From: Candidatus Poribacteria bacterium
GTDB lineage: Bacteria; Poribacteria; WGA-4E; WGA-3G
Direction of reading: 5' to 3'
DNA: 64,000 nucleotides
NCBI GenBank assembly: GCA_965205015.1
Contig: OZ242029.1
Coordinates: 1,824,001 to 1,888,000 of the forward strand
The notes beneath the pieces were generated by a model. That model searched no databases. It was not told the origin of the DNA and saw only the letters and a list, made by a program, of their open reading frames with translations. The position numbers and the translations under genes are program-made. This document shows positions 23,842 to 63,998 of this stretch, piece by piece. Position 1 is the first letter of the stretch, and every line of letters starts with the position of its first letter.

Positions 23842-24021
23842 TATCTTTTAACCTTTAAAGTCCCGTTTGAGAGACTCGTCTTGTGCTCTGATTCCAATGC
23901 GCTGATGCGGAAGAATCTCCCATATCTATTACGGTTGAAATCTTTTGTCAAACGAGAGGCTACAATCTTTACCGAAAGGTAAGGGACATCAGAATATAAA
24001 TGAATTATGAAGGAGTGTCTT

Positions 24022-26574: not shown

Positions 26575-26583
26575 GTATAGCAG

Positions 26584-26618
26584 CAATTTTTTAACAATGA
26601 CACATCGTTAAAAAATTG
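26584..26618 (+). terminator. AT-rich hairpin after the cohesin/spondin gene
   Basis: CAATTTTTTAACAATG-aca-CATCGTTAAAAAATTG inverted repeat. Confidence 0.45.
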
Positions 26619-26713
26619 AAAAATAAAACGCCCCCTCGTGTGCTATTCGGAAGTGCCGGTTGCGCTAACCGCGAATCAGCGCTGATTAGCAGTCGGCGTC
26701 GGGGCGTTTTTTA

Positions 26714-39250: not shown

Positions 39251-39316
39251 ATGCTCTTGACGGGGAAGGCTATCTATGGTATCCTACTCGTATCTTGAAT
39301 TGTTTGGAGTTATCCA

Positions 39317-43911: not shown

Positions 43912-44060
43912 TGGATCTGTTCCTTTATTTTTACTCGTAGAACGAGATAAATTCATTGGCAAATATTCATCTCTTACCATGGTTCTTTACGCTGTAAGAC
44001 TTTTTGAATACTGAGGTTGTACCATGCTATGTCCTAAATATCGAATGCTTTTGTCCTACT

Positions 44061-44627
44061 TTAAATCATACCCCTAAGATCGGTTATAATCATTGACTCC
44101 CCATTTTCTTCCGTAATCTCCCAATATTTTTTTTGAAGCGGAATAACCTTTCCTGCGTCCGCTGTATATCCCCAAATTTCCTTTTCAATAATGACAAGTC
44201 TTTCAATGTTCGATTGTGCTAATTTCTCAAAATCAATTGTCTTCACCTTAGGATTCATATGATGAATGTCATTCCGGTAGCTGCGATAGATAGCTAAGGA
44301 GGCATTAGCACAATTTTCTGTGATAATATTTTGTTTCTTAAGTTCTGATATAAGTTGTTCCTTATTTTCAAAATTTGCCGTGTTGATATTGTTTTCAACA
44401 GCAACAAACTTTAGAATCCCTTCGTTTACTGCCTGGACCATCATGACGGTTGCAATAAAATGCCCTGCGAAATAGCATTCTAGACATTCTGTTGATGCTG
44501 CCGAAAAATATGTGTGGCCAATAAGGGTGTGATGTTCCAAATCAATACGGCGCTTTATTCTCTCGTCAAAAGTGGAGTTATCTTGTTTTTTTAAGAAGTC
44601 ACGTAACATTGATTCAGGTATAGACAT
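44061..44627 (-). CDS. Hypothetical protein, possible HEPN/DUF4145-like domain
   Basis: ECYFAGHFIATVMM...E helix and RNDIHH (Rx4H); AT-rich gene; RBS GAGGA. Confidence 0.55.
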   Translation of the reverse strand: MSIPESMLRDFLKKQDNSTFDERIKRRIDLEHHTLIGHTYFSAASTECLECYFAGHFIATVMMVQAVNEGILKFVAVENNINTANFENKEQLISELKKQNIITENCANASLAIYRSYRNDIHHMNPKVKTIDFEKLAQSNIERLVIIEKEIWGYTADAGKVIPLQKKYWEITEENGESMIITDLRGMI

Positions 44628-44630
44628 GTG

Positions 44631-45752
44631 TTATTTCCTCTTGTTTAAAATTTGTCGTAGACTCTGGGCGATGATTTCTACCTCTCCGGGCATTAGCGTT
44701 TGTCCATTGATAATAATACCGTTTTCTCCTGCGCTTGGAAGGTCAATCGAGGGCTCACCGTCTGCGAGTTGCTGAAGGATTTCGTTCCGTGTGATACCGA
44801 GGTGTTCTGCATCAAATCGGATTTCAGTGCGGGGCATCGGTTGTCCGGCTTCGGAAGGGAAGATACGATGGACGGTAACGCCTTGGATATCCGAGAACGC
44901 TTCGTCGTAGTAGGTAACCTGATCCTCGTAGGATTGCTGTAATTTGTCGTGGTCTTGATCCAGATACCATTCAACAGCGGTAAGGAGTCCTACCAACTCT
45001 TCTTTCCCCACCTTCATTCCCCTGCCGATGAAAGGATGTGGGGGTCCGTTGAAAGCGATAGCCTCAATCAACGATTTTTTTCCCACAATTAACCCACTAC
45101 TCTGCGGTCCGTGCAACCCTTTCCCGCCGCTAAAGAGTGCCAAATCAGCACCCATCTGCGTGAAACGCCATAAGTTTTCAGGGGGTGGTAATTGTGCTGC
45201 GGCATCAACGATGAGGGGAATATTATGCCTTTTCGCAATCGAGATGGCTTCCTCATAAGGCACCCAGAGGTGTTCTCTACTGGGGTTTGCGAAGTAGAAG
45301 ATCGCAGCGGTCTTTTCCGTAATGGCGTTCTCTAACGCATCGGGGGTTGTTCCCTTTTCATCACCTATCTCTACGAAAGTGACACCAACCTGCCGAACGG
45401 CGTAATCGTATCCGACCCGACCGTGACGATGCACAATGACTTCACTTTTCATTGAGGGATCAAGGTGCGGCAATTTTTCGCGTTTATCTGAGTCAAGTCC
45501 GGTGATACACGCCGCAGTGCTGAGGGTCAAAGCAGCGGCAGCACCGCAGGAGACATACGCCGCTTCGTTGTGGGTGAGTTTCGCAATCTCTTCCCCGACC
45601 CGTTTTTGGAGTTCAATGATGTCTACAAAATGCTTGGCAGCGTCCGCCATCGCCGCTATGACCTCGGGGGGCATGATCGAACCACCGAGCCGTGTGAGCG
45701 TCGCATTACCGTTGATGACTGTGCGAATACCTAAGCGTTTGTAAATGCTCAT
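44631..45752 (-). CDS. SelA-like/DgaE-family PLP-dependent enzyme
   Basis: VINGNATLTRLGGS; VDAAAQLPP; FSGGKGLHGPQSSG (PLP lysine); IGRGMKVGKEE. Confidence 0.85.
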   Translation of the reverse strand: MSIYKRLGIRTVINGNATLTRLGGSIMPPEVIAAMADAAKHFVDIIELQKRVGEEIAKLTHNEAAYVSCGAAAALTLSTAACITGLDSDKREKLPHLDPSMKSEVIVHRHGRVGYDYAVRQVGVTFVEIGDEKGTTPDALENAITEKTAAIFYFANPSREHLWVPYEEAISIAKRHNIPLIVDAAAQLPPPENLWRFTQMGADLALFSGGKGLHGPQSSGLIVGKKSLIEAIAFNGPPHPFIGRGMKVGKEELVGLLTAVEWYLDQDHDKLQQSYEDQVTYYDEAFSDIQGVTVHRIFPSEAGQPMPRTEIRFDAEHLGITRNEILQQLADGEPSIDLPSAGENGIIINGQTLMPGEVEIIAQSLRQILNKRK

Positions 45753-45860: not shown

Positions 45861-46673
45861 CTATCCAACCTCTTCACCATCTAATTTGCCGACGTGGAGA
45901 TCGATCTCATCGCGCGACTCAATCTTGTCGACCTTACCGTCTGCCATGTGGAAAATACGGTCAGAGACATCTAACATCTTGTGATCGTGTGTTGCGGTGA
46001 TGATGGTTACGCCGTTTTCAGCATTGAGTCGACGGAGGAGGGCGATGATTTCGAGTCCGGTTTTGGTGTCCAAGTTTCCAGTCGGTTCATCGGCGAGAAC
46101 GATTGCGGGATCGTTTGCGAGCGAGCGTGCAATCGCAACACGCTGTTGTTGTCCACCGGAGAGTTCTAACGGCTTGTGTTGCACGCGGTCACCGAGTCCG
46201 ACGAGTGTAAGGAGGTCAACGCCTTTCTCTCTGCTTTCGTCGGCACTCATACCCGCGAAGATCATCGGAAGTGAAACGTTTTCGAGTGCCGTCATAACTG
46301 GGATGAGATTGAACGATTGAAAGATATAGCCGATCTTCCGGCAGCGAAGCCATGCGAGTTCATACGCGTCAAGTTGTGCGATGTCCACCTCATCAATGTA
46401 GACTCTGCCCTCGGTCGGTTTGTCTAAACCACCAATCATGTTGAAAAGTGTCGATTTCCCTGAACCGGAGGGACCCATAATAGAGATGTACTCGCCGCGC
46501 TGGATTTGGAAATTGACGCCACGGAGGGCATCGACGGTCTGTGTTCCCATCTCATATCGCTTGATAAGGTTCCGGACGCGAACCGTATTTTCCTTAGGGA
46601 GAACGCGTTGAAACTTTTCCGGAGTTTCGGAGAGAATGGCATTAACATCGCCGATTTCTGTTGGTATATTCAT
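45861..46673 (-). CDS. ABC transporter ATP-binding protein (LolD/MacB type)
   Basis: GPSGSGKST; LSGGQQQRVAIAR; LADEPTGNLD; ATHD. Confidence 0.94.
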   Translation of the reverse strand: MNIPTEIGDVNAILSETPEKFQRVLPKENTVRVRNLIKRYEMGTQTVDALRGVNFQIQRGEYISIMGPSGSGKSTLFNMIGGLDKPTEGRVYIDEVDIAQLDAYELAWLRCRKIGYIFQSFNLIPVMTALENVSLPMIFAGMSADESREKGVDLLTLVGLGDRVQHKPLELSGGQQQRVAIARSLANDPAIVLADEPTGNLDTKTGLEIIALLRRLNAENGVTIITATHDHKMLDVSDRIFHMADGKVDKIESRDEIDLHVGKLDGEEVG

Positions 46674-46788: not shown

Positions 46789-47256
46789 TTACCGTCTCTG
46801 TAGGAATCCAAAAATACCCTGTTTTTCAGGTTCGGGTTCGGGCGTTACGGGAGCGTTCTGTTGAGGGTTCGGAATGGCGAACCCGATGAAATTCCGTTTG
46901 CCAAGCTGCTGCATAAATGTAAACAGGGACGTTTCCGCTTCTTTCCGGGTCAACTGGTACTGGTTTTGGACCCCCTTTATAATCTGTGAGATGGTATGCT
47001 TACCGTCGCACATCTGCCACACATAAGTTCCGATGGAATCTAATACGATAACCCTTTTATTGGGGAGCATAAAAAGTTTACTGGCGAGTCGGATCCAGAG
47101 TTTGTCTTTCTGGGGAACAACGAGTGAGGCTTCGCCTTTGTCGTCTAGCTCCCAATTTATCAACTGGTTCCGAACAGGAAACGACTTCATGATCCGAGTC
47201 CGATCCATATCCGGACGTTTCTTAAGTTTGAGAGCGTATAAAATTCTGTTTAGCAT
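46789..47256 (-). CDS. PqqD-family (RiPP recognition element-like) protein
   Basis: LDSIGTYVWQMCDGKHTISQII...FMQQLGKRNFI winged-helix signature. Start ATG 47256. Confidence 0.8.
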   Translation of the reverse strand: MLNRILYALKLKKRPDMDRTRIMKSFPVRNQLINWELDDKGEASLVVPQKDKLWIRLASKLFMLPNKRVIVLDSIGTYVWQMCDGKHTISQIIKGVQNQYQLTRKEAETSLFTFMQQLGKRNFIGFAIPNPQQNAPVTPEPEPEKQGIFGFLQRR

Positions 47257-47338
47257 AATGGTTGTCAGTGCGGATTTTTTTTCGCAAGAAAAACCCGGTG
47301 AATGCCACACGGCATTCATACCGTTGATTCACCGAAAA

Positions 47339-48436
47339 CTATCCGTGGTATTGAATACTTTCAGCAACTTTTTGCACGGTCGAACGCGCATCGGTACTGC
47401 CGATCGACTGGATAACATAGATACGATTAGACTGATTGCATCGCCATAGATGGAACACAAGGGCTGTTCTCTTGGATAACTTATCAAGCATCAGCACGGG
47501 ACTGAATGGCACACCATCATAGAGCCGTGTTTGTTCCCCAATGAGTGTCAAACGCTCATTATCTGAATCTGTCTCGGATGTTACTTCAAACCCGTAGCCA
47601 CGAATCGCTTTTGCGTATTTGGTACGAAACCATGCCTCTAATGGGTTTGGGGCATCTTTATAGTCGCTCAGCATCACTTCTGCGGGTCCGTATCGCTCCA
47701 CACTCAGTCGTCCTTTGTCGGGGGGTAGGGGGTTTTTGCTTGGGGTTTTTGCTTGGGTATTTTCTGCGGATTTCCCCAAGGTTATCTCACCCCTACCATC
47801 TTCTACAGAACCATTATTCTTTAGACGATTGCTTGCCAGTTTCGCCAGCCGTACTGCACTCTGAAAGGGAACAGGCTTGGCAACGAAGGCAAACAACAGG
47901 TAGCCGCTGAGCAGTTTCTGACGTTCCAACTTGTATTCTTTTGGAACCCCTAACTTAAGCCCGTAGGCACTCCACAATGTCAATGGGGCATCCCCGCGGT
48001 CTGTAATTGATTCAAAAATCCGAAGAACTGTAGGTCGCCAATTCTCCTTGAGCCGTCCCATCACCTGCACGATCGTAATTCGCTTCCCAGTGTGAAAAAT
48101 CAGCCCATTCGCACGAATGCTCCCTTTCCAACTAAAACCGAGAACCGTCCGTCCCTTAAAGAATTCCTCTTCTTTGATGAGATTAACGTTCCGACGAAAG
48201 GAGAGCTCGGTGCCTTTCTTATACGTCTTGCGAATCAGCTTGAAATATTCGTCAAGCGTTGCGTGGAGATCCGGCTTTTTGCGTCGGGTATGCGCCCATT
48301 TGAGTTCAAGGCGAGGCATCTCTGGATCGTCAAGCCGGAGATATCCTGTTTTCTGATCTCCGCTGAGTCCACTCAGTTCCCACGTCGTGGGGATTTCCAG
48401 TTCTATGCCTGCCCACCCAAAAACAGTCCATTCCAT
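47339..48436 (-). CDS. Hypothetical protein, possibly tandem PsbP/DcrB-like domains
   Basis: 365-aa ORF within the operon; internal repeat FGWAGIELEIPTTWEL / WSAYGLKLGVPKEYKL. Confidence 0.65.
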   Translation of the reverse strand: MEWTVFGWAGIELEIPTTWELSGLSGDQKTGYLRLDDPEMPRLELKWAHTRRKKPDLHATLDEYFKLIRKTYKKGTELSFRRNVNLIKEEEFFKGRTVLGFSWKGSIRANGLIFHTGKRITIVQVMGRLKENWRPTVLRIFESITDRGDAPLTLWSAYGLKLGVPKEYKLERQKLLSGYLLFAFVAKPVPFQSAVRLAKLASNRLKNNGSVEDGRGEITLGKSAENTQAKTPSKNPLPPDKGRLSVERYGPAEVMLSDYKDAPNPLEAWFRTKYAKAIRGYGFEVTSETDSDNERLTLIGEQTRLYDGVPFSPVLMLDKLSKRTALVFHLWRCNQSNRIYVIQSIGSTDARSTVQKVAESIQYHG

Positions 48437-48761: not shown

Positions 48762-50750
48762 TTAAAACGGTTTGACGATTACGGCTTTAGAGACAAGCGC
48801 AATAGCCACGGTTCCCATACCAATGAGACCGACACCGCAGGCAAATCCTGCTGCAAGTACCGGGTTGTACATATACCAACGCCGCATCCCAAATCGCTTG
48901 ATCATGTAAAACCGTCCAATAACTGCACCGAGCAGCCGTGTAACCATACTTCCTGGATCCGCGCCGATGCCACCAACAATACCGTAGAACCACATGGAGG
49001 GGAGTTTAAATACCCACAACATCCCGTAGATTGCAAGGCTTCCGGTAAACCCGGCGGCCACATAATCCCCTCGAATTGCTTGCAGCATTTGGCTGTTTCC
49101 ATCCCGCAGCGACGTTTTCCAGAGACACTCATTTGTGGCGTTAATCGGCCACATCATCTGTGCGAATGGATACTGCGCACTGGGGATCGGTGCAATCTTC
49201 CAGATAAAGTGCAGCACCACAATTCCACTGACGACCAGAATCGGCATAATCAACAGTGTACCGGCGAGATTTGACGTGAAGGTCGTTCCTGTCAATTCAA
49301 GGACTCGCCAACTCTGTGTGCCGCGCCCGTAATCTTCGTCGGGTAATGGTGCGAACCAGATATCGACCTCTTCATAGCGACTCAAAATGAAGGTAATTTC
49401 GTGTAGATACGGTATCTCAAAGAGGTCGCGTCCCAGCACACCGAAGGTCCGTGCGGTAATATACGAATTGATCGGTGTATACAGGAAAGCGTAACCTAAC
49501 AGGAAACTCAGCGGGAAATTCGGGACCATCCAGTGAATAAGCCATACAAATCCACCCATACCGATGAGCCACATTAATCCCATCAACCATATCGGGAAAT
49601 CACCACGGTTCGGAGGCGGAGCGAAGGTGCCGCGCTCGCCTGCGGTTTTCTGAGCCCTCCGCATTTTAAAGAGCATCGGAATTGAAGCCGCCATCCCTAC
49701 GATTGCGAAACTAAAGGATTTCCCCATGCCGCAACTAATCCAGAAATCCAGTCCGTTGAACAAGCCGACACCCCGGACATCCAAACCCGGCGTCCACTGA
49801 TGGAGAATCTCATACCGGTACAGAATTTGTGGGTTCAAGATAAATTGCGTTGCCATTGCGGCAATGAATTCTGTCATCACAATCGGGAACGGCAACACGA
49901 ACCCGAAGAGCATTTGTCCAAAATCGGTTCGGAACGCGAAAACACCCGTCGGCGCGAAACCTTCGATACTCTGTGTGAAATCTATCCACGGGATCTTCAG
50001 AATCTGAATCGGTTGGCTCATCATCACACCGGTGAGTGAAGGCACACCGATATAGAGGAACCCCCAAATGAGTCCTGCCATAGAGCCGATAGAGAAGACC
50101 CGCCATCGCCAGGTTTCTTCTTTACCTGTCGTTTCTGCAAGCGCCGTTGCCCCCTGCGCACTAATCGGTGCCATCGGATAGGGGAGGCGTTCAAGGTCTG
50201 CCGTAAGTCGGAACAGAATATACTGCCCACTGACAAAACGCAGGGTTCCCAGTAGTTTTCCTGCCAGGTAGATACCGATAGGCAGAAACCAGTCTGGATG
50301 TATAAGACTTCGCGTGAGCACGCCAACGGAATCGCCTGCCGGCACAATCCAATCTGGGATTTTGTCGGCGATTTCGTAGGAAGCTGCCTGTGGCGTGTTA
50401 ACAAAATAGGCGTACCAGATAAAATTCCGGTATTGGAGCCCACTTCCGACAGCCGCACCTGTTAACCCGAGGAGCATATAAAGCTCCTGTCGTCGGGCAG
50501 TTGTAAAGGAACGCCGCGCGAGTTCGGTGAATAGAATAACGGCAACCCAAGGTGCTGCACCAGCACCGGATTCACCGGATACATAACTGAGATAAATGGA
50601 ACCCGGCATCATCAGCAAGCCAACGAAAAGTGCTCCAACAAACACTTTAACTGTTAGTCCCGACTCAAAGGTACGAATACCGCCTTCAATGTCATATCGC
50701 TGTGCCCAAGCTTGCCATTCATCTGCTTGTGATACTCTTTCTCTCGCCAA
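48762..50750 (-). CDS. OPT/DUF6785-like polytopic membrane protein (putative peptide transporter)
   Basis: Many TM helices; WVAVILFTELARR; ERLPYPMAPI; APIPSAQYP. Probable TTG start at 50750 with RBS GAAAGGAG. Confidence 0.75.
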   Translation of the reverse strand: MARERVSQADEWQAWAQRYDIEGGIRTFESGLTVKVFVGALFVGLLMMPGSIYLSYVSGESGAGAAPWVAVILFTELARRSFTTARRQELYMLLGLTGAAVGSGLQYRNFIWYAYFVNTPQAASYEIADKIPDWIVPAGDSVGVLTRSLIHPDWFLPIGIYLAGKLLGTLRFVSGQYILFRLTADLERLPYPMAPISAQGATALAETTGKEETWRWRVFSIGSMAGLIWGFLYIGVPSLTGVMMSQPIQILKIPWIDFTQSIEGFAPTGVFAFRTDFGQMLFGFVLPFPIVMTEFIAAMATQFILNPQILYRYEILHQWTPGLDVRGVGLFNGLDFWISCGMGKSFSFAIVGMAASIPMLFKMRRAQKTAGERGTFAPPPNRGDFPIWLMGLMWLIGMGGFVWLIHWMVPNFPLSFLLGYAFLYTPINSYITARTFGVLGRDLFEIPYLHEITFILSRYEEVDIWFAPLPDEDYGRGTQSWRVLELTGTTFTSNLAGTLLIMPILVVSGIVVLHFIWKIAPIPSAQYPFAQMMWPINATNECLWKTSLRDGNSQMLQAIRGDYVAAGFTGSLAIYGMLWVFKLPSMWFYGIVGGIGADPGSMVTRLLGAVIGRFYMIKRFGMRRWYMYNPVLAAGFACGVGLIGMGTVAIALVSKAVIVKPF

Positions 50751-50769
50751 ATTGAATGTTCTCCTTTCT

Positions 50770-50934
50770 TGACTGTCGGCTATCGGCATATTGGCTGTCG
50801 GCTATCGGCTTTCAGCGAAGAAGGTTTTCGTTTAACGATACCCTCTTAACTGACTGCTGAAAGGGTTTTCGTAGAAAACCCGACCCGACGGCTGATTGCC
50901 AATTGCTGACAGCCATCCTGCTGACTGCTGATGC
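50770..50934. repeat. Heptamer inverted-repeat intergenic element
   Basis: ctgtcgg-ctatcgg...ctgtcgg-ctatcgg-ctttcag left arm; ctgactg-ctga... right arm; internal GGGTTTTC-gta-GAAAACCC hairpin. Confidence 0.6.
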
Positions 50935-51123: not shown

Positions 51124-51245
51124 TATTTTAACTATGATCCCCCAAATAGGGTTCTAAAGTCCGAGTGTAAAGTCTGTAAAGTGTAACGAAAGTGAACTAA
51201 AATTATATTAAACCCAACAACTTTAGTACACTTGTGAACTTTAAT

Positions 51246-54200
51246 TTAATCTGCCGGTGTCGGTACAGGCTCCATCTGTCCTGCTTCTTCTGCCGACGGG
51301 TCCATACCTTCGGTTCTACCGCGTTCATGGAACTCTGCTCGGATATCGACGCTGAATGTCCGCCAAATCAGGAGTTGTTTCCGCAGCAGATTCAGGAAAC
51401 GTCGATTGACCCGCTTCCAAGAGGCGATCTCACCACTCTCACGATGTACATCCAACGTGATTTTGTAGAGATCCTCTTCTTCACCACCGACTGGGGATGT
51501 AACGAACTGAATAGACTGGCTCACACCTAAGTCATAAGGCGCCAACCATACCATCATCCCGATCTGATAGGAGTCTTCGGCTTCTTCTTGGCTGAACGCA
51601 ACCTGGTCCGTATAAAAGTCGCTGGCGGATTCGTCTGCATGTGCCTCAAAATAGTCCCGCATAAAGACGTTCAACCCGAGTGATTCTTCTTCAAGGACGG
51701 TAAAGGGTAAATTAAAGTGCCATACGTCCCCTTCGGGTTCTGGGAGTTTCCATTTACGTTCGATATCAGGGACTGCCATCCGTGAAGCCTTGATTGCCGG
51801 ATACATGGTACTGAGTAAAACGACAAGCATGACAATAATTGTTGCGACGACCGTTGACATTGACGAATAGTTAAGCGTCAATCCAGCGAGCCAACCGAAA
51901 TGCACGAGGGTTGTCGCGATTGCTTGTCCCATGAGATAGCCTAACACCGCACCGACGATGGCGTATACGCATGCCTCCGCAAGGAAGAGGAAGGCGATAT
52001 GCACAGGCGCGAGTCCAACGGAACTGTAGATGCCGATTTCACGGACCCGTTCATAAACGGCGCCAAGCATGGTGTTAAGAACGATAAGCGCGGCGATCAA
52101 GATCGGTACGAATAGGTTACCCATGCCGCTGAAACTCGTCATGCCAATACTACTGTAGAGATATGTGTCTTTATCACGTCCGACAAAGAAGTCAAGAGCG
52201 ATACGGTTCATGAGCGGTGCCATGATAAGGTCTAACTTATCTATTGCGCCTAACAACTGCGGATCATCCTCTCGCGGTTCCATGTTAACAGCAACACTTC
52301 GGAGGGTGCCCCCTTGATTCATAACGACTTGATAAGGGAGAATAGCGACACTGTCTGGCGTGAGATGGAGGTATTTCTGTAATTCGCCTTCAAGCGTCTC
52401 ATCACCAGTGGCACCCCGGCTCCGCTGCTGTTGCATCAGCTGATAATCGACAGGCGTAAGTTCTTCGCCATCGTTATCAGTAAGATCCTTGAAGCCGATA
52501 CCGAGGACACCAACGACAGTAAAATCGGCACCGTAAACAGAGACGGTGGCTTTCCCCATATCGCTTTCGGTGATCTTGAGCAATTCTGCCATTCCTTTGG
52601 GCAGCACAATGGCGTAGGGCCACTCCGTCGGCCATTCATTGGCATCTGCCGGGTCAAACCATTTGCCGTATTGGAGGTATCTATCAATACCGCTAACACC
52701 GGGTTCTGATTCATTCATGCCCACGAGCATGTTTGCCGCGAAGGTCAATGCTTCGCCTGTGAGTGGGTGCGTTGGAGGCGATGTATCTGCTGTGTTTTCC
52801 GTGCGTGTGAGTTGGACAAACGATTGGTCGCCGGTTCCTGAGGATTGATACCATGCGCGCGGTGCGACGACGTTCCGAACGAATAAGACGGATTCTGCGT
52901 CTACCTGTTCAATGAAACCCCCTTCTTTTAAAGTGCTACGCGCTTCCGCAAGGTCAAGCGGTTGTTCGCCTTGCTTGACCAAGAGTTCGTTTTTACGTTC
53001 CAAAAGTCGTTCTAAGGCGGTCAATGTGATTTGCGTCTTTTGCATGTCGTTCAGTACGGAGGTAAGCACCGGTTCCTCAAGTGGACGCCAATACTGGTCA
53101 CGGATGAGGAGACCGGTATAGCGCGGTGTCACTTGTGGAAGGCTCGTTCTGTTCGGGTGCATAAACGTCCGCACAGAGGTAAACGATATAACAGTAAAGG
53201 TAAGGATGACCAACGTACAACACGTCAGGATCGTCCGTCCTTTCCGTTTCCGCATGTTGGAAATACCTAAACTAAATGCAGCAGCACTCGCACTCAACCT
53301 GCCGACATCGGCTTTATAAACTTTACTGCCCTCTTGTCGGATCTTTTCGAGTTGCTCCTCGAATTTCCGGACAATAATACTGATGACGATAACCGTCAAG
53401 GCAAGTACAACAAACGCGATCAGAATAATCACAGGTGTGGTCGTAATCTGGAATGCGGGGTGAACTTGGCTGAGGAAGAAAAATACAAGTAAAAAGATGC
53501 CGAATGAACCCAAAATCTGTTTGTGGATGTTCGGGAAGCCGAAAATGAGCCGTTCCATAAAGTAGGCGAACGGCATCAGTAAGGCGAGGTAGAACATCAC
53601 ACCGTTGACGACATCGTTACCGGTCTGTTTGACGTCTGGGTATGCGCGTGATTCATAACCCCACGCGGCGCGGGCGAGTTTGAGTGCCTGTTGATAGTCG
53701 CTTTGGAGTAATTCGGTCTCCGCACGTGCAAGGTAATCGTTCGCAAATTGGTGGAGTTTGTCAAGCCGGTCACTGGAGATACCAAACCGTTTGTAAAGTC
53801 GTGAGCGGTTCTCATCGAGCCACCACATATCTCGGACAACGACGTACGGCGTGAGACGAATTTGTCCGTTTTCGCGGACGACGAAACCCTCACCGGTATA
53901 AAGCGTCGGGTTCTTCATACCGCTTTTCGTTGCTTTGATGAGAAGGAGACGTTTACCAATCTGTCCGTATGCCATTCCAACTTTGATGCGCGTGTTGGGT
54001 TCGCTATACACGAGTGCAATAGGTTCGGCTGCGGACACACCTTCCTGCTGCCACGGTTTGGACATCCCGAACTTCTCCGGCGCACTATCCGTGAGCGCAT
54101 CATAAACTTCGAGTTCCCGCAAGGTTCGCAGGTACCGTTGATCCACTAAGTCGTAGATCGTTGTAGATACACACGGAAATGTAACAACACGGCAACCGCG

Positions 54201-57200
54201 CCTACGGGTGTTGATCGGAATTTTGTTCGGAAGTAGTTTCGCACCGTAATTCCCGAGATCAGGGGCATAGACGATGTCGCCTGAATCCTTGTCAAGAATG
54301 TATGCTTCAACCTCTTGTGCACCACCGAGACGCCGTGTAGCTCTACCTTCCATTGCTAATCCGGCGACCTCAAAGTTACCCTTGTTATCGCCCATCACAA
54401 ACAGGTCTCCACGGACCCCCATCATGGTTTTGTGTTTCCTGCGGAGCGTCAAAATCGGGTAAGGCACCGGTTTATTCGGTAGTGCGGATTCACGTGCGTC
54501 AAATTCAACAACATCACCGAAGAGGTTGCAGTAGAAATTCCCGACACGTGCCGCGGTGGGCATCTCTTCATCTCGAAGGGCTTGGATGAGTAACGATGCC
54601 AATGTCTGTGCTTGCTGATGGAGGTTACCACCTTCGCGCAAATCAACGCGTTCAATCGTATCGAGGGGGGTGTCCGTTAAGACGCGGGCATCTTCAATGG
54701 TTGCAAAAGCGATGCCAGTCTTTCCGACAAGCGTGGCGACCTCGCTATCAAAAGCAATTTTACCTGGGATATAAGTCTTCCACGTCTTTCCACCGCTTGC
54801 GGAGATGGCGTTAACGAAATTTGACTCACCGCCGAGACCCGCAATCGAAATGAGAGTTTTAATATCCTCAATTTCTTCATCGGAGAAGGTGTCCGGATCT
54901 TCATGACGAAGTCGGAGCATGGCGTCCAACTGTTCACGTGTACGGATGTTATTCTTTCGATTCTTCTTTGCAGTGCGGACATCATTTCGGATGAAACGCT
55001 CGACCTCTTTACGGATGTAATCCATATCTTTGAGCATATCCTCAGAGGGTTCACCTTGATTGCGCCACTGTTCAAACTGCATCTTCATCAGTCGGCTCAC
55101 TCCGCTGAGGCCGGTGAGTTTATTGAAGTGCGAACTCAATAGCGTTTCAAGCGTCTTTCCTTCGAGTGCCGCTTTATCAGATATCCCGTTTGCAACCGTC
55201 CATTGACGTGCCATAACGGCTTGGCGAATTTGATCGTCTGTCCACTGCCAAAGTTTCCTGACACGGACACCAAAATCGGCATCTTCAGCGTAAGAGGCAA
55301 GTTTATTGCCGATGCTCGCAAACTCGCGACGTAATACAAATTCGGGTTGCTGATCGTAGAACCATCCCTTGTTGAACACCCCGAACTGATTCGACTGTGA
55401 GGAGAGGTCAATGCTAATATAGAGAGAGGTATAATACCGGTTGAATAGGTCTTGTAGGGCGATTGCCGCCTCGATCTGTCCGAGTTTTCGGTTGTATTCA
55501 TCGGTATCAATACGCAACATCTTTTCAATACGACTCTGGATGTTACGGAAACGTGCGTTGCGAAGCGTTAACATGTTATCGCGTAGAAGCACTTTGGTCT
55601 CTGCATCCAAATCGGTGTCTAATGTGGGTAACCGTTCAATGAGGTTTTCGAGTGCTACGATATCCGTATCGGCGCGATTTTTAACGATCGTTAACAATTC
55701 TTTTTCGCTAATCTGTGATGCGATGCGTAAGCGCAACGAAAGTGCTTGTTCAACTTCATCATCCGATAGGTAGTTTTCCAAAATGAGACGTTCTTCATCC
55801 AAGTATTCCCGACCTAACGTCCCCGATGTTGCGATCAAAGTCTGAATACGCGTGCGTTCCAATCGGGCATTCCGGAGTGCAATTTCAAAGATACCTTGTT
55901 TATCTTTAAGAAGATCTGCTATCAATACGGCAACATCAGTTGTATCTCCAGATTCGGCTAATCTCTGTCGCAGCTGGGTATCGATCGTGTTGAGACGTTC
56001 TATCCCGGCTTTCGACAAAAATTGACCGCCATAAATCAAAGAATCACCGCCCGATTTTCCCATCGGCGTTTCCTTGAGTCGGCGAATGCTCGCTTTAACC
56101 TCATTTTCAACGGGTTGGCTATCAGGTATTTGTGCCAGAACCTTTTCAAGGAGCTGAACCTCTCGCTGAATCGCTGCTGCTTGGGTGTCGTTGGCATCGC
56201 GTAAAACACTGCGTGCCTCTTTCGCTGTATTGAGTGAGTGTAGGTCGAGATGCCGGTCAAGTATCTTCTCAGGTGTCCACATCAGTGCAAATTTGCGTTT
56301 GTCGCTCATCTCCCAGTTTGCGAGGGTTTTGTTAAGCATCTCGATATCAGCGATGAGTTCTTGCGGAAGATCATTCGGTATTGGGATGTGCCAGTCTGAG
56401 CCCTGTTGCACCGGAATAAGATAGGCGTCATTCGGGTGCGTATTGTATTCGTCGGTACTGCCGGTCTCCACCGCGTGAATGAGTTTCTCAACCGCCCATA
56501 TATCAAGACGCGCAATCGGCAGTCCAAGCGTTTCAATCAATTCGCGCTGTGCGGATCGGCTCGTATTGAGGGCAACACCACGAACCTCAGCTAACCTACC
56601 GACAATATCTCGGAGGAAATGTGTCGTTTGCAAAGCTTCTTTCTTCGAGCGGGCAAGATTTGCTAATAAACGGCTCTTCTCTTCACCTGTGAAGCCTTGC
56701 TTTTCGCGTTTTCGATTCCTGTCTGCCTGCTTCTTCTGGCGTTCTGAAAAGTCACGCTGTTGCTCCGTAAGAGATTCAATCTCAGATCGTGTTTTTGACA
56801 AGCCGTCCAGTGTAGTTGCGAGAGAGTCTAAGTCAGACTTTACGTTGTGTATACCGTGGAAAAAGTCAGCCGGGAGATCGACAAGAACGCTCCGGTCAAT
56901 GGAGAGCAAAAGCCTTCTGCCCAACTCTTCAAATTCAAGGACATCTGTAGAAAGACCACGGCGAAGTCCGTGCATTGTGGGGGTGCCGGGTGAATCGGTG
57001 TCGGAACCGACGATATCTTGTCCAATACCTTCCATAAAGGCACGCATGCCGGCAAGCCCTTGGAAGTGTCCATCGACTGCAACAAAGAGGACAGAATAGC
57101 CGGGCCGATATTGGGGCTGACTAAAAAGACGCGCGAGTTCCATGAGGGTCGCGATACCACACGTTGGATCAGCACCGGGTGCCATGGCGGGAACGACCGA

Positions 57201-58574
57201 CATTGAGTCGTAATAAGCTGTGAGAACAATCAGTTCATCGCGTAAAGTTGGGTCTCCGCCTTCCAAAAATCCGCGTATATTTTGCCCGACACGGCGCTCC
57301 CACGTCATCTTCCCTCTTATACGAACATTAACTTGACTCCCTTCCGCCTGTTGTGCCGTCATCAAATTGGTGAGGACAGCAGCATCTTCTTTAGAAATCC
57401 AAAATCGCGGTATATTAGCGGGGACGGTACCGAACTTATTTTCTGCTTCTCCTCGAATGGTTGTGTCGGGTTCGATAAAGATGACAGCAGTGCCACCGAG
57501 CATTGCCGCATTGATATAACGAGTGCTGGAGTTAAAATCAAGAAGAACGATTGCCCCTTTCGGGATAAATATGTGTGATTCACTCGCAGCAACAAACTCG
57601 CCGGACTCATCGACTTGTCCATCGTTGTTGTTATCGATGCCATCAGTGTCATCCCCTGGGATTTCATCTGTCCAGCCATCGGCATCGTTATCAATGCCAT
57701 CTGTTGCCCATCCTAAGATTTCAGAGAGCAGAGGGATTTCACCGTACTCATCAATAGTGCCATCCTCGTCATTGTCGATGCCATCGGATGCTTTTTGTAG
57801 GTGTTCATTAAGTATATCATCGGTGATACTGGCGTCGGTGATACGATAACGTCGGGCGAGTGTTGTGAGTGTGTCCCCATCTTGGAGTTTATGCCAAAAT
57901 CCACCAATATTCGTGCCGTTGAAATCAGCAAGTTCGGCATCATCGCCGTAAAGGAGGGGACCAGATAAACCTCCTGTCGGAATAAACACCGTGCTTCCTT
58001 CGACAACTGGCGTCGCCAGAAATTGGTTCCGCTCGTCTGCAAGGATAGTCGTCTCGTCAATATGGTAACTTTCTGCGATGTCTTTGAGTGTTTCTCCTGC
58101 CAATACAGTGTGTTTAATGCCGTCTGCTAATAGAGAGGTCCGCACAAGGTTGGGCCAGAGGGGAGTGAGTTTAAAGGCGTGTAGCACATTGGCTTCCGGT
58201 GAGAGGACTTCAATGATGCTATCACCGTGGTCGATCGGCACGGTGACGGAAAATTCGCGACTTTCCACGTTCTGCAAACCGGTTTCGACGAAACGATCAA
58301 AAATGTATTTGCTTCCACTCGCAGCTTGAGGATAACCCGTTACACGACTGTCGAGACTTGAGAGGCGTGCAAGGTCCTTTCGAATGTTGCCGATAGAGAG
58401 GTCATCCCGAATCTGGATGGCTGCAGATTGCATGCCGGTACTGGGAATTGCTTGTGCGTATGCAGTATCGGATAGTTGCCCAGCGACGAGCAAAACCGAA
58501 AGAAAAAACATTAATACATTTGTGAACGCACTGAAGAGCCGCTCGCGGCACTCGGGTCTACTATGAATTTTCAT
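51246..58574 (-). CDS. 2442-aa fusion: signal peptide, degenerate M28 (nicalin/nicastrin-like) domain with LysM x2, DGIDN acidic repeats and helical insert, and two FtsX-like permease modules
   Basis: SRVTGYP; LysM-like HTVLAGETLKDIA and HKLQDGDTLTTLAR; DGIDNDxDG x3; IVLTAYYDS...PGAD...LMELARLFS; FSLGISNMRKRKGRT; LNTMLGAVYERVREIGIYSSVGLAP...FLAEA; YPAIKAS. Confidence 0.85.
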   Translation of the reverse strand: MKIHSRPECRERLFSAFTNVLMFFLSVLLVAGQLSDTAYAQAIPSTGMQSAAIQIRDDLSIGNIRKDLARLSSLDSRVTGYPQAASGSKYIFDRFVETGLQNVESREFSVTVPIDHGDSIIEVLSPEANVLHAFKLTPLWPNLVRTSLLADGIKHTVLAGETLKDIAESYHIDETTILADERNQFLATPVVEGSTVFIPTGGLSGPLLYGDDAELADFNGTNIGGFWHKLQDGDTLTTLARRYRITDASITDDILNEHLQKASDGIDNDEDGTIDEYGEIPLLSEILGWATDGIDNDADGWTDEIPGDDTDGIDNNNDGQVDESGEFVAASESHIFIPKGAIVLLDFNSSTRYINAAMLGGTAVIFIEPDTTIRGEAENKFGTVPANIPRFWISKEDAAVLTNLMTAQQAEGSQVNVRIRGKMTWERRVGQNIRGFLEGGDPTLRDELIVLTAYYDSMSVVPAMAPGADPTCGIATLMELARLFSQPQYRPGYSVLFVAVDGHFQGLAGMRAFMEGIGQDIVGSDTDSPGTPTMHGLRRGLSTDVLEFEELGRRLLLSIDRSVLVDLPADFFHGIHNVKSDLDSLATTLDGLSKTRSEIESLTEQQRDFSERQKKQADRNRKREKQGFTGEEKSRLLANLARSKKEALQTTHFLRDIVGRLAEVRGVALNTSRSAQRELIETLGLPIARLDIWAVEKLIHAVETGSTDEYNTHPNDAYLIPVQQGSDWHIPIPNDLPQELIADIEMLNKTLANWEMSDKRKFALMWTPEKILDRHLDLHSLNTAKEARSVLRDANDTQAAAIQREVQLLEKVLAQIPDSQPVENEVKASIRRLKETPMGKSGGDSLIYGGQFLSKAGIERLNTIDTQLRQRLAESGDTTDVAVLIADLLKDKQGIFEIALRNARLERTRIQTLIATSGTLGREYLDEERLILENYLSDDEVEQALSLRLRIASQISEKELLTIVKNRADTDIVALENLIERLPTLDTDLDAETKVLLRDNMLTLRNARFRNIQSRIEKMLRIDTDEYNRKLGQIEAAIALQDLFNRYYTSLYISIDLSSQSNQFGVFNKGWFYDQQPEFVLRREFASIGNKLASYAEDADFGVRVRKLWQWTDDQIRQAVMARQWTVANGISDKAALEGKTLETLLSSHFNKLTGLSGVSRLMKMQFEQWRNQGEPSEDMLKDMDYIRKEVERFIRNDVRTAKKNRKNNIRTREQLDAMLRLRHEDPDTFSDEEIEDIKTLISIAGLGGESNFVNAISASGGKTWKTYIPGKIAFDSEVATLVGKTGIAFATIEDARVLTDTPLDTIERVDLREGGNLHQQAQTLASLLIQALRDEEMPTAARVGNFYCNLFGDVVEFDARESALPNKPVPYPILTLRRKHKTMMGVRGDLFVMGDNKGNFEVAGLAMEGRATRRLGGAQEVEAYILDKDSGDIVYAPDLGNYGAKLLPNKIPINTRRRGCRVVTFPCVSTTIYDLVDQRYLRTLRELEVYDALTDSAPEKFGMSKPWQQEGVSAAEPIALVYSEPNTRIKVGMAYGQIGKRLLLIKATKSGMKNPTLYTGEGFVVRENGQIRLTPYVVVRDMWWLDENRSRLYKRFGISSDRLDKLHQFANDYLARAETELLQSDYQQALKLARAAWGYESRAYPDVKQTGNDVVNGVMFYLALLMPFAYFMERLIFGFPNIHKQILGSFGIFLLVFFFLSQVHPAFQITTTPVIILIAFVVLALTVIVISIIVRKFEEQLEKIRQEGSKVYKADVGRLSASAAAFSLGISNMRKRKGRTILTCCTLVILTFTVISFTSVRTFMHPNRTSLPQVTPRYTGLLIRDQYWRPLEEPVLTSVLNDMQKTQITLTALERLLERKNELLVKQGEQPLDLAEARSTLKEGGFIEQVDAESVLFVRNVVAPRAWYQSSGTGDQSFVQLTRTENTADTSPPTHPLTGEALTFAANMLVGMNESEPGVSGIDRYLQYGKWFDPADANEWPTEWPYAIVLPKGMAELLKITESDMGKATVSVYGADFTVVGVLGIGFKDLTDNDGEELTPVDYQLMQQQRSRGATGDETLEGELQKYLHLTPDSVAILPYQVVMNQGGTLRSVAVNMEPREDDPQLLGAIDKLDLIMAPLMNRIALDFFVGRDKDTYLYSSIGMTSFSGMGNLFVPILIAALIVLNTMLGAVYERVREIGIYSSVGLAPVHIAFLFLAEACVYAIVGAVLGYLMGQAIATTLVHFGWLAGLTLNYSSMSTVVATIIVMLVVLLSTMYPAIKASRMAVPDIERKWKLPEPEGDVWHFNLPFTVLEEESLGLNVFMRDYFEAHADESASDFYTDQVAFSQEEAEDSYQIGMMVWLAPYDLGVSQSIQFVTSPVGGEEEDLYKITLDVHRESGEIASWKRVNRRFLNLLRKQLLIWRTFSVDIRAEFHERGRTEGMDPSAEEAGQMEPVPTPAD

Positions 58575-58678
58575 GTTGTGAAGTCTCCCGCCTTTTTCTG
58601 GTTTTTCAGATTTTCTCCCCGCCGCATAGATTCCTATGTTCGGAGCCTACTGGCGTAGTTTTGGGAGGCAATATTTAT

Positions 58679-58748
58679 ATTGTATACTATTATTGCAATT
58701 TTTGTCAAATTAAAAAAATTTGCATTTAAGGCTTTTTTAGGTTAAAAT
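58679..58748. promoter_or_regulatory. Back-to-back divergent sigma70 promoters
   Basis: Minus: TTGACA (58708-58703) with TACAAT (58684-58679). Plus: TTGCAT (58720)-N17-TAAAAT (58743). Confidence 0.5.
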
Positions 58749-58878
58749 ATATTTCACGCTTTTGCCTCTCATTGAAGCAGAATCCTCTTCAAACTACATT
58801 TCACTGCAATACTAAAAAATTTCAAAAAAAATCAGCAGCAGTCCAACCCTAATCTTGCTGCCTGATAAGGAGCCAAAC

Positions 58879-59238
58879 GTGGGCAAAGAATCAAGAGACT
58901 CAAATACAGACAAAGTCGTCTCACGTATAAAACTACGTCGCCACGAACTGAAGTTGACACAAACAGAACTTGCGAAAGTGGCGAATCTAACACCTGCGGC
59001 GATCTCCCAATTTGAATCAGGAGCCCGGAAACCGTCGTTTAAAACACTTTCAAGTCTTTCCGATGCTCTAAAAGTCACTACCGATTACCTACTTGGAAAA
59101 GCCGACAAAAGTTACGATGATCTTTTAGCCGACCCAAAGATTAGTGCTATGTTCAAGGGGATGATGGAATTTACGGAAAAAGATAAGGAAACGCTCTACG
59201 AGTTCTATGAATTTCTTAAGGTGAAAGCCAACCAGTGA
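58879..59238 (+). CDS. XRE-family HTH transcriptional regulator
   Basis: LTQTELAKVANLTPAAISQFESGARKPS...TDYLLG. GTG start with RBS AAGGAG. Confidence 0.9.
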   Translation: MGKESRDSNTDKVVSRIKLRRHELKLTQTELAKVANLTPAAISQFESGARKPSFKTLSSLSDALKVTTDYLLGKADKSYDDLLADPKISAMFKGMMEFTEKDKETLYEFYEFLKVKANQ

Positions 59239-62219: not shown

Positions 62220-63086
62220 CTACGCCCCCTCAGTCAAAGTTGGTAGATTCATCGAAAAAATAAGAAAATTTCCGTTAAAATGGTGTTGAAGAACAAAAAC
62301 TTCCATTTGAGAAAATAGCCTTGTGCAGTTCATTTCCTTAAATACAATTTTCATTTGACTATGCAGACGATTCCGCTCGGTCTCATTATGACATGGAACA
62401 CCGAAGTTCAATGTATTATCTCGGATTTGAGGATATTGATTCGGATTCAGAATATTTGCGCCAGCTTTAACTTCTGTCATAATACGAAAACGTAACCGTA
62501 CTGAGGCATCGTCTACGTTTCTTGTTTTACTGAAGGTTTGTTGTTCGCTAAACAGATCCAGCAATTTCTGTTTCATTGATACGGACAAAGTTTCTCCAAG
62601 TTCGTTTAGCCGCTCTTCTAAAGCTTGAGCAAATGACCCTGAAATTAGTGTTGAAACCGGGACTGTCTCGAAAAACTTTCCGTGAGTCAAGCAGACTTTC
62701 ACGTTTGACTGTTTTCTACCTCGAATTAGATAAAAAACCTGGCGAATAGGTAAGGAAAGTATGTCGTTGCCTGCCTTTTGCATCTGTGTTCGGATGATGT
62801 TTTTTCGGCCTGCCGTTAACTTTTCGATAGCCTTTTCACCTGTTGGGATTGTTGAATTGAAAGAAGCCACCTCATAAGCTTTGCTATCTTTAAGTTCAAT
62901 CAATTCCCCGCCCGTAAACTGTGAATCACCACGATTGAGTTTAATGGCTAAATCGGGAAATTTTCCCTTGTTAATACAAGAAAGCATTTGCTCATCAAAC
63001 GGAAAACTTTCAAGTTTATTTGCCGAGAGAAATTCCTCTTTTTTTTGGCATAAATCGGCGAAGAAATGGTAAATTGAATAAGCCAT
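62220..63086 (-). CDS. Putative Type II restriction endonuclease
   Basis: FPDL...GELIELKDSK PD-(D/E)xK motif; starts immediately after the MTase stop codon. Confidence 0.65.
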   Translation of the reverse strand: MAYSIYHFFADLCQKKEEFLSANKLESFPFDEQMLSCINKGKFPDLAIKLNRGDSQFTGGELIELKDSKAYEVASFNSTIPTGEKAIEKLTAGRKNIIRTQMQKAGNDILSLPIRQVFYLIRGRKQSNVKVCLTHGKFFETVPVSTLISGSFAQALEERLNELGETLSVSMKQKLLDLFSEQQTFSKTRNVDDASVRLRFRIMTEVKAGANILNPNQYPQIRDNTLNFGVPCHNETERNRLHSQMKIVFKEMNCTRLFSQMEVFVLQHHFNGNFLIFSMNLPTLTEGA

Positions 63087-63998
63087 CTATTGGTTTGATT
63101 TAAGAAAAGCCATCTGTTTGGTACCGGTTTCGTCGAAGGAGACGCATTTTTTGTTTAGCCCACGGTCTCCCCAAATGGTGTCTAAATCCGGGGTACAGGC
63201 ATAATCCTTGAAAAAGCGCGAGACATCATCTGATTTTCTCTGATCGGCAAGTCTATTTTGAATAAGCGCGACGTTGTGCGAGTCGAGCTCGATTCCTATG
63301 GAGCGGCGCCTTAATTGTTCTGCGACAACGAGCGTTGTTCCCGAACCTGCGAACGGATCGAGGACGACATCCCCTGGATTTGTAGAAGAAAGGATAATCC
63401 GGAGGAGCAATTGAATAGGGGTCTGTTGTTTGTGCAGGCGGTTTCCTTCTGCATCGCGCAAAGCCTCATCACCTGCAAAGTAACCAGCGGTTAATTCACG
63501 GATATCATCCCACACATCCGTCACAAACATACCGTTCTCTCGCGCGTGCTTGTAGCCTACCGGCAGTGGTGGATCAATGCGCAGTCGATGGAAAACACGC
63601 GGGGTCTTCCCCTTCGTTGCAAACGTAATGACTTGATAGTGTTTGCCAAAACGTTTCAACCCCGGTACTGCTGAGGTTTTCTTTTTCCAAATAATCAGGT
63701 TTTGGAAACTCCATCCGGTATCGCGTAAACACCGCAACACGAATTCCGTATTTTTTTCTCGTTGCATGAAGTAAATTGCACCGCCATCGGAAGTCAAAGC
63801 GTACACCTTCGCGCAGACCTCATGCATCCACCCCCAATATTTCGCTGGAGACAAATTGTCGTCCCACATATTATATGCCTTGTCCTGATTGAAAGGTGGA
63901 TCGAGGAAGGATAGATCTATTTTGGATTCAACGCGCCTGCTATCTAACGCAGTCGCACAATTTTCGTGGAGGACGATGCAGTTTTTTCTTACTGAGGT
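63087..63998 (-). CDS. N4-C/N6-A DNA methyltransferase, beta class (5' end beyond the window)
   Basis: The frame stays open to the window end and includes motif IV DPPF (IDLSFLDPPFNQ), followed by motif I VLDPFAGSGTT. Confidence 0.9.
   Translation of the reverse strand, partial: TSVRKNCIVLHENCATALDSRRVESKIDLSFLDPPFNQDKAYNMWDDNLSPAKYWGWMHEVCAKVYALTSDGGAIYFMQREKNTEFVLRCLRDTGWSFQNLIIWKKKTSAVPGLKRFGKHYQVITFATKGKTPRVFHRLRIDPPLPVGYKHARENGMFVTDVWDDIRELTAGYFAGDEALRDAEGNRLHKQQTPIQLLLRIILSSTNPGDVVLDPFAGSGTTLVVAEQLRRRSIGIELDSHNVALIQNRLADQRKSDDVSRFFKDYACTPDLDTIWGDRGLNKKCVSFDETGTKQMAFLKSNQ

Follow-up and report, generated by a model that had tools for sequence, protein, structure and literature searches.

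The window analysed here, 64,000 nucleotides of contig OZ242029.1 (assembly GCA_965205015.1) from a Candidatus Poribacteria bacterium, a sponge symbiont, contains an open reading frame (ORF) of 2442 amino acids (aa) on the minus strand (51246-58574). Comparisons of its translation identify the N-terminal portion as an extracytoplasmic head of M28/PA type, carried by a permease of the MacB/FtsX type, that is, an ATP-binding cassette (ABC) permease of type VII. The canonical two-zinc site of M28 peptidases and its Glu general base are gone from the aligned positions of this head, and the residues found there instead are near-invariant in a large family. By its profiles the family descends from M28 aminopeptidases with a PA domain and not from the nicalin/nicastrin line. 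We give a probability of about 0.6 to this reading as a whole, in which a type VII ABC permease carries a remodelled M28/PA head whose pocket is re-used and whose ancestor was a PA-aminopeptidase. An earlier note on the same DNA had described an M28 domain, with one insert, that had lost its metal ligands and resembled nicalin and nicastrin. The three motifs it pointed to, AYYDS (aa 453-457, nt 57204-57218), DGHFQG (aa 501-506, nt 57057-57074) and TDTPLDT (aa 1300-1306, nt 54657-54677), and the 37-aa segment likened to nicalin (aa 449-485) all sit within the single ORF, and the region assigned to the domain (54650-57250) corresponds to aa 442-1309.

Three Pfam families score above their cut-offs in the 2442-aa protein: LysM (aa 155-179), Peptidase_M28 (aa 432-515) and FtsX (aa 2156-2266). 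Peptidase_M28 reached E 6.6e-8 and 32.9 bits (cut-off 21.3) with the whole protein and E 2.8e-9 with aa 341-515; across scans the score ranged from 32.9 to 37.4 bits, and the match covers the first half of the domain only (profile positions 1-78 of 193). A profile of the family ectodomain (A2, 36 sequences) was compared by hhalign with 14 ordinary EE-type M28 aminopeptidases drawn from 26 Armatimonadota genomes. The resulting alignment (Prob 99.96, E 4.5e-39, 491 columns) takes in both M28 halves as well as the N-terminal part and the PA domain; with 14 glutaminyl-cyclase-like M28 proteins instead, the E-value was 8.6e-10. In the second half, the canonical SDH and YHTxxDT motifs find their counterparts in hhalign and in a sub-threshold HMMER stretch. 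The PA region, which follows the N-terminal part and precedes the M28 core, is spanned by both the hhalign and the HMMER alignments. Pfam PA scores 16.8-20.5 bits in the window protein, below its cut-off of 23.9 because the domain is split by an insert, and 27.1 bits in the relative L016. The M28 match is, by these scores, well above chance, and the M28 assignment of the earlier note stands. A quick tree, from which nicalin was left out, united the 36 heads in one clade (Shimodaira-Hasegawa-like approximate likelihood ratio support, SH-aLRT, 100) that grouped with the EE-type aminopeptidases (support 90).

The best solved relatives by profile are the Aneurinibacillus aminopeptidase 2ek8 and YwaD of Bacillus subtilis (6hc6). 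Both are soluble secreted two-zinc enzymes, named aminopeptidases in their PDB entries. They share with the head the order of N-terminal M28 part, PA domain and M28 core, and their framework of HxD, GAxD..SG, SDH and YHTxxDT is still recognisable in it. The head differs from them in the replacement of His97, Glu152, His256 and Glu151, in a ligand loop one residue shorter, in its fusion to seven transmembrane (TM) helices and, in this lineage, in three inserts of about 865 aa altogether.

Residues were mapped from the hhalign and HMMER alignments to the Vibrio aminopeptidase and 2ek8, which agree with each other. The canonical numbering is that of the Vibrio enzyme and comes partly from PDB chain positions; for Asp179 and His256 it is the numbering that we take to be correct. 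The ligand His97 is replaced by Tyr454, AHxD corresponding to AYYDS, and the conserved acid Asp99 is matched by Asp456. Asp469 stands for the bridging ligand Asp117, is a Glu in most members and lies in the shortened loop. The G-E-E motif has become G502-H503-F504, so that the general base Glu151 is replaced by His503 and the ligand Glu152 by Phe504. The ligand Asp179 corresponds to Asp1056 within ISIDLSS, where hhalign sets LDLS against the canonical lDm motif. The SDH motif reads D1276-S-E1278, and the ligand His256 gives way to Asp1301, YHTxxDT being aligned with T-D1301-T-P-L-D-T. Three of the five ligand positions are lost, while D469 and D1056 are still acidic. All 14 control enzymes keep H, D, EE, D/E and H at these positions, and therefore the two-zinc site is not intact.

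Conservation was counted in an alignment of the window protein and 97 relatives, namely those of at least 1350 aa among 150 listed. D456 and H503 are present in 98/98 sequences, D1305 in 96/98, E1278 in 90/98, D1301 in 85/98, an acid at position 469 in 82/98 and Y454 in 76/98; D1295 and R1297 are kept in 36/36, D1056 in 35/36 and F504 in 29/36. In Poribacteria-type proteins the motifs DARxLTDTPLD[TR] and AFDSEV both occur in 121/121. H503, E1278, D1295, R1297 and D1301 are specific to the family, whereas D456, T1302, P1303 and D1305 are M28 heritage and are conserved in ordinary M28 enzymes as well. The alignments thus define a near-invariant family-wide set of D456, D/E469, H503, D1056, E1278, D1295, R1297, D1301 and D1305. 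As the family hardly varies in the replacement residues, the site appears remodelled, not decayed. The motif replacements that the earlier note had read from the translation are real, being borne out by both HMMER and hhalign. Its statement that the metal ligands were lost describes three ligands and the base correctly but passes over the two positions that are still acidic and the constancy of the replacements. Likewise, a working two-zinc aminopeptidase site is indeed missing, as its non-catalytic gatekeeper would require, but such constancy argues against a dead pocket.

The same residues could be taken to mean that the head is still an enzyme, with His503 as the base and an altered metal centre in which D469, D1056, D1301 and Tyr454 would hold one ion. 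The invariant H503 lies exactly at the general-base position, two ligand positions have retained an acid and a third has acquired one, and E1278, D1295 and R1297 are further invariants, a strictness of conservation unusual for a pure scaffold. However, the zinc ligand Glu152 has become Phe, His97 and His256 are gone, and binding alone could account for the conservation; we consider continued catalysis of this kind unlikely.

As for the membrane part, hydropathy and charge predict a signal peptide, about 1600 aa outside, three TM helices and a basic cytoplasmic linker, followed by an FtsX unit, in which an outside loop of 348 aa separates TM1 from TM2-4, and by a cytoplasmic tail of 176 aa. The N-terminal signal would be cleaved at AYA-QA. 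The head is accordingly placed outside and joined to seven TM helices in total, in keeping with the earlier proposal that it is the ectodomain of a membrane-protein machine. Pfam FtsX gave 47.9 bits (E 1.6e-12, cut-off 25.5), and in the PDB this module matched MacB (5lil, 8.8e-9) and LolC (4.5e-8). On the TM1-TM2 loop, MacB_PCD scores 18.4 bits in the window protein, below its cut-off of 27, and 40.1 bits in the relative P0125.

The giant gene is followed by genes for conserved partners and an ATPase (Table 1). Neighbourhoods were counted in 80 of 587 confirmed loci, many of the 80 being cut by contig ends. The ATPase matches the NCBIfam models for LolD (2.6e-70), MacB (2.1e-64) and FtsE (5.7e-63), all under the equivalog cut-offs, and its syntenic counterparts are 62-93% identical; judged by this similarity, it is likely the motor of the system. 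A PDB profile search with the OPT-like partner returned one chance match (E 0.24). For the 365-aa partner, no Pfam, NCBIfam, PDB-profile or Atlas family was found, the best of its chance PDB-profile matches having an E of 0.83. Between the PqqD-like and ATPase genes, 29 of the 80 loci (L011, L016, L026, L030, L035 and L037 among them) encode a mini-FtsX of about 210 aa with four TM helices and almost no outside domain. Over the 80 loci, the operon has no conserved gene for an amidase or hydrolase. RNA libraries of four sponge metatranscriptome studies contain contigs that extend over the operon with 90-99% identity, and four contigs labelled X2 tile 51245-58618. These contigs come from relatives and cannot prove transcription; they give a weak hint that the relatives express the operon.

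MacAB-TolC, LolCDE, FtsEX-EnvC and YbbAP-TesA share with the giant protein the four-helix module of FtsX type and, probably, a periplasmic domain between TM1 and TM2, and an ATPase of the LolD/MacB/FtsE type is likewise encoded in the window operon. To our knowledge, partners like the OPT-like, PqqD-like and 365-aa proteins are known from no described type VII system. Periplasmic partners of hydrolase fold occur in YbbAP-TesA and FtsEX-EnvC, as described in PMC12646458; here, in contrast, the hydrolase-like module is fused covalently at the N-terminus through three extra TM helices. On the model of FtsEX-EnvC, LolCDE and YbbAP-TesA, the LolD-type ATPase would hydrolyse ATP to move the FtsX periplasmic domain and, with it, the head. 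The old active-site pocket would persist in the form of a specific acidic/His centre for binding, or possibly for new catalysis; its periplasmic ligand might be a peptide amino terminus or a metal chelate. Once captured, this ligand might be offered to the conserved OPT-like partner or set free beside it.

We hold a more specific proposal only tentatively and think it is less probable than its opposite. It has the invariant His503, an acidic cluster (D456, D/E469, D1056, E1278, D1295, D1301 and D1305) and R1297 form a re-tooled centre that takes up a metal or an amino group or has a new catalytic role. The centre would serve as ATP-driven capture device in an undescribed machine of type VII ABC transporter and OPT-like protein that occurs in many bacterial phyla. 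In sponge symbionts the device would be further armed with LysM modules and about 680 aa of new helical domains.

Several observations weigh against a remodelled head on a type VII permease as set out above. The second M28 half escaped the single-sequence Pfam and PDB searches. That the conserved residues form a single pocket is deduced from homology to solved M28 enzymes, and the conservation of D456, T1302, P1303 and D1305 may be structural only. The OPT label is weak, since only 2 of 32 homologues match, the best with E 1.2e-5 and below the Pfam cut-off. The direction of transport and the hand-over to the OPT-like protein are purely conjectural. Finally, the mini-FtsX gene is missing from the window operon and likewise from the Poribacteria-type loci L051, L069 and L072; the Poribacteria-type permease may be a homodimer, or the gene may be located elsewhere.

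The M28 domain proved to be interrupted not by one insert but by three, all lineage-specific (Table 1). At the PA site the median length is 35 aa in the 97 relatives (32-55 aa in 94 of them) and 199 aa in the window protein. Site A has 539 aa against a median of 29 aa (range 14-559), and site B has 155 aa against a median of 13 aa. The PA insert carries two LysM modules (Pfam, two stretches, 25.8-30.5 bits, cut-off 20.9), which are confined to the Poribacteria-type clade, and three acidic repeats of DGIDN type that were read from the translation and may bind calcium. Insert A is rich in Leu, Arg, Glu and Asp and poor in Pro and Gly. No family was found for insert A or insert B in Pfam, the PDB or the Atlas. 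A long coiled coil was considered for the inserts, but a crude heptad test was unsupportive, with 3.8% of the windows of insert A passing. The inserts are kept down to 48% overall identity; within the clade, insert A is 32-82% identical whereas the M28 halves are 62-98% identical, i.e., the inserts evolve faster than the core. The head of the Poribacteria proteins would have gained LysM modules, acidic repeats and two large helix-favouring inserts, probably as an envelope tether or spacer. Site A is a hot spot for insertions; it lies in the loop that follows the GHFQxLxG helix, and in P0125 a discoidin (F5/8 type C) domain is found there (aa 351-459).

Such modules invite comparison with FtsEX-EnvC, where, as described in PMC11491553 and PMC12646458, a degenerate peptidase-like domain works with a type VII ABC permease. 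Head and inserts would then switch a cell-wall hydrolase or remodel peptidoglycan, with no route of capture and transport. The two LysM modules of the Poribacteria insert and the discoidin domain at site A of another member fit this regulator. Against it stand the restriction of LysM to one clade and the short PA site of nearly all relatives, the operon partners, which are an OPT-like permease and a PqqD-like protein with no conserved amidase or hydrolase gene, and the heptad test, which is unsupportive of a long EnvC-like coiled coil. We regard this regulator as rather improbable.

The earlier note had also suggested a prokaryotic relative of nicalin and nicastrin, and pairwise comparison does show a resemblance. 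In a single-sequence search nicalin (7tm3_7) was the best solved match of the M28 piece (aa 447-513, E 8.8e-5, 24.8 bits, against 17-20.5 bits for the Vibrio aminopeptidase), with ELARLFS identical and a loop of equal length between YD and GAD. With the compact member L011 alone, nicalin ranked third (3e-5), behind 2ek8 (1.7e-11) and YwaD (2.4e-7) and ahead of the Vibrio aminopeptidase (0.0033). The PA-aminopeptidases probably lose this lead in the window protein because the insert of 200 aa splits the PA domain. With family profiles, however, the resemblance vanishes. The A2 profile ranked 2ek8 (5.1e-22) and YwaD (3.7e-20) far ahead of the Vibrio aminopeptidase (about 1e-10), the transferrin receptor (about 5e-9), nicalin (1.5e-8) and nicastrin (0.8), and the A1 profile gave the same ranking (2ek8 7.7e-24, YwaD 2.9e-24). 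Nicalin trails 2ek8 and YwaD by 12 to 14 orders of magnitude, and nicastrin stays at 0.6-0.8. Over the same 90-residue segment nicalin (33.1/31.3 bits) does not rise above the active peptidases (Vibrio aminopeptidase 35.5-39.9, YwaD 37.0), and nicastrin reaches 14.7 bits. Pfam Nicastrin scores 11.3 bits (E 0.25, cut-off 25), and none of four other family heads matches it at E<=10. By profile, the family is nearer to bacterial PA-aminopeptidases than to nicalin.

The substitutions differ as well, namely at His97, at the bridging Asp and at the Glu-Glu pair. In nicalin the His of HxD is still present, Ser occupies the bridging position, and Gly and Lys stand opposite His503 and Phe504; the ligand losses are therefore independent. 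The heptad is also not diagnostic of nicalin, as LLELARLF was found in ordinary bacterial M28 proteins (L101, L082). Nicalin of the BOS complex and nicastrin of gamma-secretase are likewise M28-fold ectodomains without a working zinc site on membrane complexes. Passages of PMC7505659 describe nicalin-TMEM147 as modelled on nicastrin-APH-1, with a single C-terminal TM helix packed on a 7-TM partner of the APH-1/TMEM147 type. The membrane architecture of our protein is different, as the head precedes three TM helices and a four-TM FtsX module, with an ABC ATPase in the operon. Pfam scans of the operon proteins found no family of Aph-1 or TMEM147 type, and in the literature beyond bioRxiv supplements we found no paper on a prokaryotic origin of nicalin. 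Membership in, or sisterhood to, the nicalin/nicastrin lineage, with a gatekeeper function by descent, is on this evidence very improbable. The similarity is best described as generic M28 similarity plus a chance heptad, and therefore it offers no handle on the origin of the BOS or gamma-secretase ectodomains.

The head could also be seen as what is left of a peptidase that has decayed and lost its function, serving only as a spacer or folding unit. This would agree with the loss of three canonical ligands and the base and with large inserts tolerated at three sites, but the replaced positions are near-invariant over phyla and the M28 halves are far better conserved within the clade than insert A, so that we find it hardly credible.

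The transferrin receptor and glutamate carboxypeptidase II provide a precedent for M28 plus PA ectodomains used as receptors. The transferrin receptor matches the N-terminal/PA part of the family at about 4e-9 to 5e-9, more weakly than the bacterial aminopeptidases do. The membrane anchor of the head differs from theirs, and Pfam scans detected no TFR_dimer domain in the window protein.

If the remodelled head on a type VII permease is correct, it represents a widespread unstudied family with hundreds of clusters at 50% identity in at least eight phyla, whose database labels are merely "M28 family peptidase", "FtsX-like permease family protein" or "hypothetical". In this family an aminopeptidase fold put to new use would be linked with a mechanotransmitting ABC motor and an OPT-like permease. 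The known periplasmic partners of type VII ABC systems would be joined by one of a new kind, and the family would be an example of an enzyme metal site that was rebuilt instead of lost.

Table 1. Features of the giant gene and its operon, listed from the upstream side (window coordinates)
Feature	Position	Strand	Basis and remarks
Promoter-like TTGACA-18-TACAAT	58679..58708	-	11/12 consensus matches; ~105 nt upstream of start codon
Signal peptide or anchor, aa 1-41	58452..58574	-	Hydropathy; basic n-region, hydrophobic core, AYA-QA
N-terminal M28 strand-helix part, aa 42-140, family-wide	58155..58451	-	Occupancy 0.75-0.98 in 97 relatives; hhalign
Insert inside PA domain, aa 141-340, lineage-specific	57555..58154	-	LysM (Pfam); site length vs 97 relatives
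Remaining PA and first half of M28 core, aa 341-515	57030..57554	-	Peptidase_M28 2.8e-9, PA 16.8 bits; carries Y454, D456, D469, H503, F504
Insert A, aa 516-1040	55455..57029	-	Occupancy 0.02-0.35 in relatives
M28 core strand and following segment, aa 1041-1100	55275..55454	-	Occupancy 0.65-0.89; D1056 in ISIDLSS
Insert B, aa 1101-1240, charged	54855..55274	-	Site length vs relatives
Second half of M28 core, aa 1241-1400	54375..54854	-	hhalign and sub-threshold HMMER stretch; carries E1278 (in AFDSEV), D1295, R1297, D1301, T1302, P1303, D1305
Post-M28 extracytoplasmic region, aa 1401-1654, family-conserved	53613..54374	-	Occupancy 0.5-0.98; no Pfam or PDB match
Three extra TM helices, linker, FtsX TM1, aa 1655-1801	53172..53612	-	Hydropathy; linker with 8 K+R
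TM1-TM2 periplasmic domain, MacB_PCD-like, aa 1802-2146	52137..53171	-	Pfam below cut-off
FtsX-type TM2-TM4, aa 2147-2266	51777..52136	-	Pfam FtsX 1.6e-12
Cytoplasmic C-terminal domain, aa 2267-2442 and stop, family-conserved	51246..51776	-	Occupancy 0.82-0.97; no Pfam or PDB match
675-aa polytopic membrane partner, weakly OPT-like	48762..50789	-	60/80 loci, usually directly downstream
365-aa conserved partner	47339..48436	-	27/80 loci
176-aa PqqD-like protein, peptide-chaperone fold	46789..47319	-	Pfam PqqD 1.9e-11; 24/80 loci
270-aa ABC ATPase, LolD/MacB/FtsE type	45861..46673	-	NCBIfam; 34/80 loci

The family is large, widespread and unstudied. A search with aa 330-1420 in a library clustered at 50% identity returned 2248 representatives at E<=1e-3 and 297 at E<=1e-30, and the confirmed loci came from a scan of one genome per species. 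Carriers were found in Armatimonadota, WS1, Desantisbacteria, Latescibacterota, Gemmatimonadota, Planctomycetota, Nitrospirota, Poribacteria and other groups. Most members have 1450-1800 aa, and the core shared by the family consists of aa 61-140, 201-220, 341-515, 1041-1100 and 1241-2420 of the window protein. Close homologues come from Candidatus Poribacteria (70-95% identity, 2400-2470 aa) and are labelled hypothetical, M28 family peptidase or LysM protein. Among the best 120 matches listed from a search with the head profile, 117 carry FtsX, and two of the other three are short or labelled partial; no stand-alone head was seen among these 120, lower ranks being outside the scope of this count. 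The members P0207, P0213 and P0228 and those at loci L063 and L065 reach 2800-3100 aa, with about 1300 additional N-terminal residues ahead of the M28 head. An OPT-like fusion at the N-terminus of these proteins of about 3000 aa was considered and rejected, the best E being 0.01 on an unrelated stretch. In the literature beyond bioRxiv supplements, no paper on this fusion was found, and none holding FtsX, M28 and PqqD together.

Upstream of the giant gene, the promoter-like sequence is a consensus match only, as sites of this type are no commoner in the region than in its shuffles. A divergent gene (58855-59238, plus strand) encodes an HTH_3 (Cro/C1-type) regulator, of which a 76% identical copy lies beside L072. 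Past the ATPase gene, the minus-strand region 43201-45752 encodes a DgaE/SelA-like pyridoxal phosphate enzyme, a 188-aa unknown protein and a protein of metallo-beta-lactamase fold. Only the last of these recurs, at one Poribacteria locus (L072), and therefore these genes probably lie outside the system. An ordinary MacB-type permease of 411 aa (29012-30247, plus strand; MacB_PCD 3.9e-42, FtsX 2.8e-18) is flanked by GFO/IDH/MocA oxidoreductases with no ATPase directly adjoining, and is not the missing mini-FtsX.

The remaining features of the window concern other functions. Scans of the 64 kb found neither a tRNA gene nor, at gathering score, any Rfam family. Adjoining the operon, 36290-43132 (plus strand) holds a gene for a 986-aa methylase (Eco57I-like or type IIG-like) followed by one for a 1271-aa protein without a Pfam family, which matches the PADLOC model PD-Lambda-4_A (E 3.3e-29); by these matches the two are likely a defence pair. 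At 62220-63869 (minus strand), a type II DNA methylase (N6_N4_Mtase, 1.6e-39) adjoins a 288-aa protein without a family, and they may form a restriction-modification pair. Proteins with eukaryote-like or cellulosome-like domains are encoded at 24007-27862 (plus strand), 15644-16648 (minus strand) and 18387-19289 (minus strand); they include an 855-aa protein with cohesin, Spondin_N and FlgD_ig, a 382-aa protein with dockerin and Reeler, a sortilin-Vps10 protein and a carbonic anhydrase of eukaryotic type.

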